64,000 nucleotides of DNA from Candidatus Bathyarchaeota archaeon (GTDB lineage: Archaea; Thermoproteota; Bathyarchaeia; Bathyarchaeales; Bathycorpusculaceae): NCBI GenBank assembly GCA_963768425.1, contig CAVYHV010000009.1, positions 1-64,000 of the forward strand, written 5' to 3'. Position 1 is the first letter of the stretch, and each line of letters begins with the position of its first letter. Position numbers and translations under genes: made by a program. Positions 56,341-60,400 of the stretch are shown here, piece after piece. A model generated the notes under the pieces. That model made no database searches, was not told where the DNA came from, and saw nothing but the letters and a program-made list of their open reading frames with translations.

Positions 56341-58632
56341 TTAGTATCCTGCTATGCTCTTTTGTTTTTGTTGCTGAACGGCGTTGTAGATTGATTGCGT
56401 CGTGAAGCCTTCGAAACTTAGCAGGTTCGCTGCAGCAGAGTAAAGCAGAAGCAGGTATTTTTGGGTGTCAGGTTCTATGCCCTTTTCAATCAGTTGCGCT
56501 GCCTTAACTCTCCTGTCATGACGCTTGGCCTTAGAATGCGTGAATACGAACCTTATACTATTTCCAGCATGTACTTCCGCGCCCTCCTTGATTAGCTGTT
56601 CTGCAGCTATGACCTGGCTAACGTGTTGGTGGTATCGCTCCGGGTTTATTGACATGCGTTTAGTTATAATCAGATCACCAATCGGCATATCTCCATCTAA
56701 CAGTTTTTGTCGATAACGATTCACAACATCTAAAGCAGATGAAATTCTCTGGCGAAGTTCAGCCGTATTGTTCGCTGCGGCAAGCGTGTTAATCATTTCT
56801 GTTTGGGCGTCAAAAACAAATCTTGGGGTATCCCTTCGCCGGATTTCTAAGCCGCGTATTTTGATTTTGCCGTTTTCCATTACCCCGTAATAGCGGTTCA
56901 ATACGCCTATACGCGGATGAGTTTTAGAAGGCAGGAAAACGATCCATTTGTAGCGTCCTTCAAAGTTAATTGGTACACCGGACTGCGCAGTTATTATTTT
57001 GCAGAGGTCTTCGTAGTCTTCCAAGCTGGCGCTAGGTTTTTTGAGCCAAAGTGAATCCACAATGCCATGGATAACTTCAAACCCATGCTCCTCTGCGGTA
57101 TGAGATGCATTAAGCAGGGCTTCTCTGCCAAACGCGCAAACTCCAATGTGCCCGTCTACTGTGCCGAATTTTGCGTTTTTGTAACCTAAGTACCCAAAGC
57201 ATGTGACTAAAATCCATTTGAGTGCACTCTGTCGGTTATCGTAGACTTCTCTTAGATGTGGGTCAGGATATTCGTCTTTCATTTTCTTGTAATAGAGTCG
57301 TTTGTCTACGACGAATCTTAGTGTTTTGGGAACTATGCCCGTGCGTTTTATGCATATGTGATAGTTTAGTTCTGGGATGCGTTTGGTCGAATCTGAGCAG
57401 CATTTGCAGAGAACGGTTTCGGCTGATATGTTGTTTTTTGCCATTATAAATGGGTACATGCTGCTAAAGTCTACTTCGCCAACATAGTCGTGTGCACCTA
57501 CTTTGGGTTCATAAACAAATCCTCCCCGATCGCCTACCAGAAGATCATAAGCGGATTTGAAGGCTTCAGGTATACTTTTGTTTCGTGGAATCAACACATC
57601 ATCCTTTATGGCCTGATAGAATTGGAGAGAGGACATGCTCGAGCCTATGGAGTTGCGTGCAGCAGTGTGAAGTGGTACTCGACAAGTTCTTGCAATCTCT
57701 ATTAATCCATCGAACCCTGCCTCGGATAAAACGAACGTGTTGTTTTCATCGATATGGATTCTTCCGTAAAGCCGAATGGGTCCAGCTCGATAGAAGGTGC
57801 GCCCGTAAGAGAAGAATGTTTTACCTGAAGGAGTTTTCGTGGAAAATGGCGTTCCGTCTCTGCTTAGAGTGAAGTTGTCAATGACGTTGTTTAGGGTTGC
57901 TCGCTCTGTGAGGTAAGGAAAAACGTATGAATCGCCCCCTGTAGTCACTAAGAAGTCTGGGTCAAGCTCTATGACTGTCTTAGCGAGTTGGTGAAGTTTT
58001 TCTGCTTCGTCGCCTGCGTCGATTCGTATTTTTTCTTGGCCTTGATTCATCAAAATTGTGCCTATGGGGTCGTTGAATGCTGCGATTTTACTTTTCTTAG
58101 CAATTTCTATTTCCAATTTCATAACTCGTAACGGTGGAATGGCATAATCCATGCTGGCTACTGAATCAAGCAAAGTGTACTGAAGACCCGTTTTTTCAAC
58201 TTTAACTTCTACAAATGCAAGGGGGAAGATGTCGTGGCTAAAAAAGTACGCTCGATCTCCTTTCAGGTCGCAGTTAGAAACCTGATATCGCATGTAGTCG
58301 CCCAACCTTAGAATGGTATTGGCCAGGCTCTGTGTTCGTCTGCAGTCTTTGAGTTCAAGTTCTAGAACTTTGCTTTTTTCTGAATCTGTGGGCTGGGCAT
58401 ACTTGTACGTAAAGCTCCACTTGGCCACATCGGAGTTATTGTAGAGATGACCTATTACCGGTTCAATACTGTCTAGTTTGGATGAAACGTAAATTTTAGG
58501 GTGAAACTTATCGATTAAACGGATTCTTTGGCCTACTTCGCTAATTATCCAGACAGTGATTTCCCCTTCGTTTGATGGATAAGCATCAAATATCCAACCT
58601 TTGACTTTACATGGACTGTTAATTGTAAGCAT
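56341..58632 (-). CDS. polB2: Family B DNA polymerase, PolB2 group
   Basis: DRGG, DFSSMYP, KWILVTCFGYLG, HGIVDSLW (PolB2-type motif C), NRYYG, RGLEIRRRD. Confidence 0.88.
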   Translation of the reverse strand: MLTINSPCKVKGWIFDAYPSNEGEITVWIISEVGQRIRLIDKFHPKIYVSSKLDSIEPVIGHLYNNSDVAKWSFTYKYAQPTDSEKSKVLELELKDCRRTQSLANTILRLGDYMRYQVSNCDLKGDRAYFFSHDIFPLAFVEVKVEKTGLQYTLLDSVASMDYAIPPLRVMKLEIEIAKKSKIAAFNDPIGTILMNQGQEKIRIDAGDEAEKLHQLAKTVIELDPDFLVTTGGDSYVFPYLTERATLNNVIDNFTLSRDGTPFSTKTPSGKTFFSYGRTFYRAGPIRLYGRIHIDENNTFVLSEAGFDGLIEIARTCRVPLHTAARNSIGSSMSSLQFYQAIKDDVLIPRNKSIPEAFKSAYDLLVGDRGGFVYEPKVGAHDYVGEVDFSSMYPFIMAKNNISAETVLCKCCSDSTKRIPELNYHICIKRTGIVPKTLRFVVDKRLYYKKMKDEYPDPHLREVYDNRQSALKWILVTCFGYLGYKNAKFGTVDGHIGVCAFGREALLNASHTAEEHGFEVIHGIVDSLWLKKPSASLEDYEDLCKIITAQSGVPINFEGRYKWIVFLPSKTHPRIGVLNRYYGVMENGKIKIRGLEIRRRDTPRFVFDAQTEMINTLAAANNTAELRQRISSALDVVNRYRQKLLDGDMPIGDLIITKRMSINPERYHQHVSQVIAAEQLIKEGAEVHAGNSIRFVFTHSKAKRHDRRVKAAQLIEKGIEPDTQKYLLLLYSAAANLLSFEGFTTQSIYNAVQQQKQKSIAGY

Positions 58633-58886
58633 TCAAATCCTCCGAGCGTCTGAAGGCGCGCTTTAATTTTTTCTTTGATAGTAACCAAAGGACTTGCGCT
58701 TATTCTCAAAATCCTTTAAAAAATATTTGCCGAAACGACTACTTACCGCAGTGGAGAGTTAAGTGAAAATGGAAAGTTGCTTTTTCATAAGTTTTGTCAT
58801 TAGCGGATTTGGTCTCAGACTTGGAAAAAAGAAAACAGTATAGTAAGAGCTAAGAGCGCCAATAGCTAAAAAGTAATAGGAGATAG

Positions 58887-59015
58887 ATGTCCGAAAACAA
58901 AGTGATTGGCTTTACAGAGTTTTTTGGTAAAGTAAACGCTATAGTTGTTAAAGACGGAAAAGTTGAACTTCAAGAAACCGAGATAGAAAGATGCGATTGT
59001 TGCTGGAAAGACTAG
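58887..59015 (+). CDS. Unannotated 42-aa protein ending in CDCCWKD
   Basis: AGGAGA RBS, ATG 58887, TAG 59013-59015; MSENKVIGFTEFFGKVNAIVVKDGKVELQETEIERCDCCWKD. Confidence 0.6.
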   Translation: MSENKVIGFTEFFGKVNAIVVKDGKVELQETEIERCDCCWKD

Positions 59016-59229
59016 AAAAATTAACATTTCTAACTCTGGGATTAATTTAGTTTTCAATTCCGTTGAACAAGTCCTCTCATGTTAGAACTTTGGGTCTTTA
59101 CCGTAGAACAATGCGGTTTCTGTTCAATCGTCTGATTATATCAGGTTGATGGCGGCTGCTTTTTCATTTATCATTAGTACAGCTGGAATTTGCTTGATTG
59201 TTCTTTTTTCAAATATCCTCAAGAAAAAC

Positions 59230-59420
59230 AAAAATGACCACCTCCGGCTCAAACTGGAAAAAACGATTCCGCCTTGGCAGGTCACGTTAACATGATGCGA
59301 ATAGGGGATAGATGTCATGGCAAGTATGGGGAATACTCGCATCTCGTCAGCGTTGACCCGCCAAGGCAAACTTGACCAGTGGTGAAGGTAGCTGCCTTAT
59401 CGGCAAACCTTAGAAACCCA
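59230..59420 (-). ncRNA. Putative novel rod-like structured RNA (~190 nt)
   Basis: ~33-bp imperfect stem 59271-59303/59334-59367, outer stems to 59237/59392, most mismatches resolve as G-U on minus strand; AT-rich box ~25-30 nt upstream; U-tract right after. Confidence 0.6.
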
Positions 59421-59505
59421 AGCAGAAAATTAAGAGTTGCTCACATAAAATATTTAGAAAACATATAACAGGAAGGTAGCCTCAATTAGGTAGGGTTAAA
59501 AACCC

Positions 59506-60051
59506 ATGAGAAAAATCCTCAAAGTAATCTTAATAGTTATCGTTGTATTAGCGGTTGCCACATTGATTGGCATTGGTCTCTGCTTCTCCGACGTAGCCGC
59601 CTACACAGCAACTGGTTCCAAGACTTTGTTGCCACCCAGCGCTTCGGTGGGAAAAGCGATTGTTGTTTACGATCCCGGATTTTCCGGAGCAGCACATAGC
59701 ATTGCACAGAAAATAGCAAGTGATCTCCAAGCAAAAGGTTACACCGTGACTTTGGCGGGTATAAAAAGTTCTGCCGCAGCTCACACCTCAGGCTACAGTG
59801 TAATCGTCGTTGGAGGACCGATTTACGGCGGAAAACCAACAGGCTCAGTTGACGCCTTTCTCAGAAACCTAAACCCGACGCAAGCAATCAGACTTGGCGT
59901 TTTCGGAAGTGGCAGTTTCAACGTTCCAACCGATAAAGTTGCAGTGCTGCCTAAGAACAGCAATTTAACGATTACTTACTCCACGAAAATATTGTCCAGT
60001 GACATTCAATCCGTCCGCTGTCAAGACTTCGTAAACCAACTACTAAAATAA
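59506..60051 (+). CDS. Membrane-anchored flavodoxin-like protein
   Basis: N-terminal TM; AIVVYDPGFSGAA, IVVGGPIYGG, GVFGSG. Confidence 0.75.
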   Translation: MRKILKVILIVIVVLAVATLIGIGLCFSDVAAYTATGSKTLLPPSASVGKAIVVYDPGFSGAAHSIAQKIASDLQAKGYTVTLAGIKSSAAAHTSGYSVIVVGGPIYGGKPTGSVDAFLRNLNPTQAIRLGVFGSGSFNVPTDKVAVLPKNSNLTITYSTKILSSDIQSVRCQDFVNQLLK

Positions 60052-60074
60052 GATGGCTAAAGATTTTTTGTTTT

Positions 60075-60400
60075 AGTATATAAGATTTCCACGTTAAGAT
60101 TGTGGTATCGTTTCTTGTTAACGGTGATTCTTCCTTCTTGTATAGGCGTCTTTTAGACACCGTTGAAGGCAGGCAAAACAGGTCATACAGTTCTCGCCCT
60201 GGGAAGGCTTGCTACTATTCAGTCTGATGTTGTCCATTGGACAAACTTGCACACATAACCGCATCCCGAGCAGTTGCTATCTGACGCAAAAGCGCATGAT
60301 TTCCATCCACGGAGGGCAACTTCTTTTGTCAGACCAAACGTTTCGGGGTAGTTCATTTTTCAGTAGTTGCTCTATTTTGTCTTCTTTGGCGTCAATCTAA
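60075..60400 (-). pseudogene. Relic of EFR1-type flavodoxin-ferredoxin C-terminus
   Basis: Across frames: NCSGCG..CVQVCPMDNI...ENCMTCFACLQRC...TVNKKRYHN. Confidence 0.6.

Follow-up and report, generated by a model that had tools for sequence, protein, structure and literature searches.

A covariation-supported family of long-hairpin RNAs in Bathyarchaeia, candidate small regulatory or scaffold RNAs

A minus-strand RNA structure and its putative gene

The window described here (the whole stretch of 64,000 nucleotides that was analysed, from one contig of a Candidatus Bathyarchaeota genome of 2.96 Mb and 91% completeness, G000) carries near its end an imperfect hairpin of ~100 nt, henceforth referred to as the rod, which is read from the minus strand (59367-59271). 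A co-oriented gene for a family B polymerase (polB) lies ~600 nt downstream of it. On the other side, a divergent gene (59506-60051, plus strand) encodes a protein of 181 aa with a hydrophobic N-terminus, whose flavodoxin-like match of 25.3 bits is below the Pfam cut-off of 27.

The structure at this position is real, better than chance and favours the minus strand. Folded in this direction, the rod region outdoes shuffled sequence (z -5.1 to -5.5), and the plus strand gives a weaker fold (z -2.9 to -3.6). For the 231-nt stretch initially marked out, the minus strand reached -80.4 kcal/mol (z -5.08, with none of 200 shuffles as good) and the plus strand -67.7 kcal/mol (z -3.60); for the predicted transcript, taken as 173 nt, the values were -65.3 kcal/mol and z -5.5, against z -2.9 for its complement. 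In the minimum-free-energy fold of this transcript, positions 59367-59334 pair with 59303-59271 through 31 base pairs, four of them G-U. The original prediction had described just such a structured, unannotated minus-strand RNA, with its main stem at this position, a 30-nt loop with C-runs at each end and a small 5' hairpin with a GAUAA loop. All of these parts were recovered: minus-strand folding is superior both to the plus strand and to the shuffles, the C-runs UUCCCC and UCCCC can be read in the loop sequence, and the small hairpin forms in the fold of the predicted transcript. Inside the unpaired stretch that follows this hairpin a three-pair helix has also been proposed, based on single sequences.

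The prediction fared less well in describing the whole as a closed rod of ~190 nt. The outer stems on which that shape depended (ACUGG/CCAGU and GCUACCUUC/GGAGGUGGU) do form when the 231-nt stretch is folded, but they are not conserved beyond the closest relative. Their 3' partners (59257-59237) lie downstream of a run of six U residues and cannot be aligned past that same relative, and in members of the family (types A to E, see below) a U-run tends to come straight after the main hairpin.

Features of the putative RNA gene in the window. Types A, C and D are groups of related loci described in the text.
Feature	Position	Strand	Remarks
TATA box TCTAAATA	59451..59458	-	Kept in the 16 type-A loci, also in types C and D
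Block between TATA box and predicted start (TAT..GTGnnAACTCTTAA)	59430..59450	-	Common to types A, C and D despite differing downstream sequence
Predicted transcript, ~175 nt	59258..59431	-	Both ends predicted, from TATA spacing and the U6 run
5'-arm hairpin UUGCC-GAUAA-GGCAG	59392..59406	-	Five pairs; formed in the fold of the predicted transcript
Unpaired stretch CUACCUUCACCACUGGU	59375..59391	-	Almost unchanged across type A
Rod	59271..59367	-	Terminal imperfect hairpin: basal helix of 13-14 bp, two small internal loops flanking a 2-bp CG/CG step, upper helix
Apical loop	59304..59333	-	30 nt, C-rich and G-poor; UUCCCC at 59333-59328, UCCCC at 59308-59304
Apical-loop motif ACUUGCCAUGA	59325-59315	-	11 nt, nearly invariant in type A
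U6 run, likely transcription stop	59258..59263	-	Starts 7 nt past the aligned rod stretch (end 59270)
Second U-rich run UUUUUGUUUUU	59224..59234	-	Has a counterpart in the closest relative (L013) only

The A+T-rich, promoter-like box that had been noted upstream is indeed present. The sequence TTCTAAATA precedes all 16 type-A members (at 59458-59451 in the window) and is followed by a conserved block ending in AACTCTTAA. As the tRNA genes of the same genome have boxes of the same type (TCTAAAT/TCTATAT) ~35-40 nt upstream, we take TTCTAAATA to be the local form of the TATA box. The standard spacing between TATA box and start in archaea places the start of transcription near 59431-59428; if the conserved block were itself transcribed, the start would instead fall at ~59440, and the block can be read either as promoter DNA or as the 5' end of the RNA. 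A search with this promoter block retrieved types A and D together with similar TATA-plus-TAT blocks ahead of other sequences, so that part of the block is probably a general pattern of strong promoters in this organism. One such TATA-plus-TAT block lies on the same contig just past the end of the window (C9:64355, minus strand), ahead of a small Cys/His-rich ORF.

At the other end, the U6 run begins shortly after the rod. Runs of at least four T within 40 nt past the rod were found in 9/16 type-A, 11/13 type-B and 6/7 type-D loci; they were absent from the remaining seven type-A loci and from all five loci of types C or E. Given the position of the U6 run 7 nt past the rod and the T-runs past most rods of types A, B and D, the RNA most likely consists of a 60-nt 5' arm and a terminal hairpin, ~175 nt altogether. 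The second U-rich run (59234-59224) may act as a stop for read-through.

No known class of RNA accounted for the locus. Searched at gathering thresholds with Rfam 15, whose families cover SRP, RNase P, 6S, Y, box C/D and H/ACA RNAs, riboswitches and ribozymes, the entire 64-kb window gave no match, in line with the novelty claimed initially, and when the limit was relaxed to E up to 10 for positions 58600-60100 only three chance matches appeared (11.8-16.4 bits, against thresholds of 40-117). The statement that the RNA was neither a tRNA, an SRP RNA nor an RNase P RNA also stands, the SRP RNA (C6:17538-17852, 146.5 bits) and RNase P RNA (C15:88125-88430, 191.4 bits) of this genome being found on other contigs. 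Guide RNAs of the box H/ACA kind have an ACA 3' of the hairpin and a kink-turn in the upper stem, and those of the box C/D kind carry the boxes RUGAUGA (C) and CUGA (D). Reading the alignments, we saw no conserved ACA 3' of the rod and no conserved tandem G-A pair; a CUGA is present in the window, but most members have CUGG at this place.

Homologs, paralogs and their distribution

A BLAST search over 61 genomes (60 relatives and the genome itself) yielded a single homolog with 73% identity. Of 120 genomes of the genus, 15 had strong matches to a covariance model seeded from these two sequences, 16 matches in total (56-204 bits) that we call type A. The model rebuilt from the 16 (R2) found all of them again, now at 120-180 bits and ahead of a next-best RNA-strand match of 36 bits, and gave the window locus 180.4 bits on the minus strand and 44.9 on the opposite one.

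The 16 sequences were aligned by fitting them to the model, a procedure that favours the structure, and in this alignment standard pairs occupy 92.2% of the cells, compared with 26-40% after shifting the 3' partners by 1-3 columns; both sides change in 17 of the 33 pairs of the type-A model (rod and 5'-arm helices), and none of 500 column shuffles reached any of five pairing measures. Independently, RNAalifold recovered 23 rod pairs, 13 of them with compensatory changes. Its consensus pairs contain G-U or U-G in 42 cells and A-C or C-A in 11, the asymmetry expected of an RNA read from the minus strand. The original argument from a G-U over A-C bias, made on one sequence as a sign of selection on RNA, thus extends to 16 homologs, and the homologs with compensatory changes that it called for exist. 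In the 5'-arm hairpin 91.5% of cells are paired, and covariation argues for it only weakly since one of its five pairs changes on both sides. A tertiary pairing between UUGCC of the loop and the 3' strand of this hairpin was also considered and rejected, the few variable members showing no covariation. Across 15 type-A rods the loop is 36% C and 12% G, with CCC in 13 of them.

Weaker matches to the type-A model elsewhere have the lower hairpin almost letter for letter (CUUGGCGGAUCAnCG ... AACG ... GGUCCGCCAAG), while their 5' arms and loops differ. We sorted them into types A to E. With the profiles of types B and D, two more came to light in the genome itself, one of type B (C30:30297-30557, minus strand, E 5.6e-31 with the type-B profile) and one of type D (C14:131791-131984, minus strand, E 4.1e-25 with the type-D profile), both with the lower rod of the window RNA and with different 5' arms and loops. 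They are so diverged that only profiles of their own type detect them: BLAST against the genome found the window locus alone (next E 0.17), as did nhmmer with the type-A profile (next E 1.2). This single copy by both methods rules out a MITE, which the original prediction had named as a finding that would refute a functional ncRNA. Counting the window locus, the genome holds no fewer than three paralogous RNA genes. The paralogous family had gone unmentioned in the original prediction, with two further copies on other contigs of the same genome. Another weak match, C8:168219-168272, proved on inspection to be no paralog. The type-B and type-D loci gave no Rfam match at E up to 1.

When 40 rods of types A to E were placed on a hand-drawn structure, 82.2% of the cells were paired, versus 32-40% in slid controls, with changes on both sides in 23 of 25 pairs and in 12 of 13 pairs of the basal helix. 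The paralogs are all built to a common plan that comprises an own promoter, a 5' arm specific to each type and an imperfect hairpin of ~100 nt, mostly followed by a short spacer and a U-run. In type D the loops are again C-rich (35% C, 11% G, at least two CCC in 7/7). Three genomes have types A and D in tandem: the type-A gene is followed by one of type D that has a TATA block to itself, with ~170-270 nt between the rods (type-D rods L023:1256-1338, minus; L024:1935-2033, plus; L025:1144-1239, minus).

The genomic surroundings differ from type to type. One subtype of B has the order LonB-RNA-DUF559-PhoU, with all four genes in L028, L074 and G000, and with only LonB and DUF559 in L044 and L075. 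Type D is located between the gene of an SRP54-type GTPase and an AHSA1 gene (G000 and L066; in L034 the GTPase side only). Since each type has a conserved neighbourhood of its own, the paralogs are best described as vertically inherited chromosomal genes. Among the 16 type-A loci the flanking genes vary, on either strand; flavodoxin-family genes occur near the RNA in six of them, probably a decaying ancestral synteny.

A functional link to polB had been suggested, tentatively, from the co-orientation of the two genes. A family B polymerase follows in 3/16 type-A loci, namely the window and its two closest relatives. At the next closest locus (L019) the downstream ORF is an unrelated gene and not polB, and at the other type-A loci the neighbouring genes are convergent or unrelated (flavodoxin, PUA plus VTT, a GPN-type GTPase, an FAD oxidase). 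Seen only among close kin, the association leaves the proposed link unsupported in these genomes.

For the wider distribution of the family we used the rod model under Infernal's stricter filters on sampled genomes, so that absence here means not found in those searched. Within the genus, 85 of 120 genomes had matches at E up to 0.001 (50 of 73 among high-quality genomes), with 1-8 matches per genome when both strands of the palindrome are counted. In a sample of 151 genomes of the order, the rod was present in 6/12 genomes of the genus and 3/6 of one sister genus, and nothing else matched apart from one case in another family (L070, G241:C14:1064-1165, 72.9 bits), on a contig of 2,665 nt that may be mis-binned and so represent no true occurrence outside the family. 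None of 135 genomes from 30 other families of Bathyarchaeia had a match. On present searches, therefore, members occur in two genera that belong to one family and, L070 aside, no other family searched yielded any. GTDB species genomes scanned for the pattern gave ten stretches, of which seven came from MAGs titled Bathyarchaeia or Bathyarchaeota, as anticipated for relatives of this RNA, and three were bacterial chance matches. Metagenome contigs picked by pattern scored 70-84 bits with the rod model in 10 of 13 cases, and of 18 viral contigs picked by sequence pattern none scored.

Candidate functions

Sibling small RNAs, a name that we use for a functional class and not for a homology family, are stand-alone units with paralogs and conserved unpaired motifs. 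The RNA of the window resembles them in its TATA box, its U-runs, the three paralogs in this genome and its loop motif. With a probability of roughly 40%, we favour a trans-acting regulatory RNA on a protein-bound scaffold. The minus strand between ~59431 and ~59258 would then be a stand-alone gene for a structured type-A small RNA of ~175 nt, in which the hairpin, probably protein-bound, would stabilise the molecule as a scaffold and form its 3'-end element. Its contact surfaces would be the unpaired, G-poor and C-rich apical loop (ACUUGCCAUGA plus the UCCCC runs) and the unpaired CUACCUUCACCACUGGU of the 5' arm, and the most likely contact would be pairing with certain mRNAs at translation start regions that are G-rich and contain AUG. 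In reverse complement, the loop of the window gives GGGGA, eight further bases and then AUG, which resembles a translation start region. The sequence of the helix is kept from one paralog to the next, which speaks for a protein partner no less than for base pairing.

Sites complementary to the loop, to the 5'-arm motifs and to the 5' block occur in the genome at chance level only; a 9-mer complementary to the loop core has 35 sites, none of them outstanding. We also considered whether the loop could be a general mimic of the anti-Shine-Dalgarno sequence. Upstream of 419 start codons, AGGAG is present in 7.6% (7.4-fold enriched) and GGGGA in 1.2%, versus a background of 0.6%; by k-mer count the words enriched in start regions are AGGAG, GAGGA and GGUGA rather than GGGGA, and the 3' end of the 16S rRNA is GGAUCACCUCCU. 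UCCCC is no complement of the Shine-Dalgarno words in use, and these counts speak against such general mimicry.

Some of these traits are known from other small RNAs. LhrC1-5 of Listeria (PMC4132741) and the UCCC-motif Rsa RNAs of Staphylococcus (PMC2790875) are likewise reported to be present as several paralogs per genome, some in tandem, and are G-poor with C-runs (UCCC motifs in the loops of the multicopy LhrC) in loops and single strands, encoded by stand-alone genes that end in a hairpin and a U-run. They have no sequence relation to the RNA described here; they are bacterial, ~100 nt long and have short terminator hairpins, whereas the hairpin here is itself ~100 nt, is conserved in sequence between paralogs and carries UCCCC runs unmatched to the Shine-Dalgarno words of its genome. 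Among archaea, the intergenic small RNAs sRNA154 and sRNA41 of Methanosarcina mazei are described as masking ribosome binding sites with loop sequences (PMC5867862). There is no homology to them either: by the same source they are single genes limited to Methanosarcina, without a paralog scaffold in common, and their function has been tested experimentally (PMC5867862). We rate the present RNA as a new family within a known kind, the stand-alone small regulatory or scaffold RNA, its unusual trait apparently being the long, sequence-conserved scaffold common to several paralogs. Among the papers listed by full-text searches, none was found on non-coding RNAs of Bathyarchaeia beyond the universal ones.

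Scaffolds or decoys such as 6S, Y, 7SK and CsrB RNA offer another model, in which the lower helix and the AACG/AACG loops would bind a lineage-specific protein that the paralogs titrate or deliver, without any pairing to mRNA. We regard this as possible, if on balance unlikely. It would agree with the conservation of the lower rod, in sequence and in pairing, among paralogs with divergent arms and loops, with the presence of several paralogs per genome and with the restriction of the RNA to two genera, as for a lineage-specific partner. The near two-fold symmetric AACG/AACG element around the 2-bp CG/CG step, itself kept in sequence between paralogs, suggests recognition by a protein. The original prediction had suggested a decoy like 6S or Y RNA. 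In both of these the 5' and 3' ends come together to close the long helix; 6S has in addition a central bubble that mimics an open promoter, and Y RNA a bulged helix that binds Ro. The RNA of the window is similar in its size (~180 nt), its long imperfect helix, its several paralogs (as in Y RNAs) and in that a protein-binding helix is plausible. It departs from them, which weakens the suggestion, in that the hairpin makes up the 3' two-thirds of the RNA and ends in a 30-nt loop, with no central bubble and no closure by the two ends of the molecule: the first 60 nt lie outside the hairpin and the outer closing stems are not conserved. No Rfam family matches it, and the genome (91% complete) has no match to TROVE/Ro (PF05731), detected in control genomes, nor a Piwi gene. 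None of the paralogs has a candidate partner gene linked to it, and a pure scaffold leaves the nearly invariant 11-nt loop motif unexplained.

The remaining explanations are much less probable. As a cis-acting leader or attenuator, the hairpin and U-run would form a conditional stop that governs the next gene in the same orientation (polB in the window), and the 5' arm would be the sensor; we find this very improbable. A hairpin followed by U6 does look like a terminator, AAGGCA (the 3' strand of the 5'-arm hairpin) could pair instead with UGCCUU at the start of the rod, and besides polB there is DUF559 on the same strand after one type-B subtype. Yet termination in archaea needs no hairpin, the alternative pairing falls in almost invariant columns, beyond the reach of covariation, and the gap to polB is ~600 nt. 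A leader should also have a constant co-oriented gene downstream, and polB comes after three of 16 type-A loci, with a convergent next gene in L011, L018 and L022 for example. More improbable still is an antisense partner of a small plus-strand gene in the style of type I toxin-antitoxin systems. Two frames come into question, a 49-codon frame at 59146-59295, which opens hydrophobic and overlaps the 3' half of the rod, and one of ~22 codons from the ATG opposite the loop, where the complement of the loop resembles a ribosome binding site plus ATG. The frames from the ATG region differ among members, that of the window being frameshifted with respect to its kin within the conserved basal part of the rod, and a small ORF opposite the loop was rejected on this ground. 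The 49-codon ORF is probably non-coding as well: in L013, whose DNA is 93% identical, the peptide is 70% identical and contains an in-frame stop, distant type-A loci are at chance level (E 0.5 or worse) bar L019, where 24 residues match in the portion that runs into the rod, and types B and D have the rod in unrelated contexts. We give the least credence to a DNA palindrome or a remnant of a mobile element (MITE, IS end or attachment site). The long inverted repeat and the related copies per genome would fit it. Against it, there is one type-A copy per genome (two in a single genome) and no further one in G000, every type has a conserved syntenic position to itself, the excess of G-U over A-C is specific to one strand, the promoter box is conserved, and none of the pattern-picked viral contigs scored with the rod model.

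A more speculative extension, to which we assign a low probability, would make the rod RNAs the RNA subunits of a lineage-specific ribonucleoprotein system, in which a common, protein-binding hairpin is combined with interchangeable arms and loops. With the loops of types A and D C-rich and those of type E Shine-Dalgarno-like, the paralogs could form a network that mimics, sponges or competes for signals of translation initiation. If this ribonucleoprotein reading were true, the family would be snRNA-like or Y-RNA-like, without counterpart among described archaeal RNAs.

Bathyarchaeia, most of them still uncultured, occur in abundance in sediments and peat. The 40 aligned rods and three covariance models define a covariation-supported RNA family, open to annotation in no fewer than 85 genomes of the genus, and provide a defined set of sequences for metatranscriptomes. 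Should a protein partner or targets be found, the family would represent a lineage-specific system of RNA regulation of a kind rarely seen in an uncultured class of archaea.

The two examples of type E (L064:1062-1171, plus strand; L042:1177-1284, minus strand) have purine-rich loops with 38-39% G and 6-9% C, a composition opposite to that of the C-rich loops of types A and D. AGGAG, GGAGA and GAGAG occur in these loops, and they belong to the words with the strongest enrichment ahead of start codons in G000.
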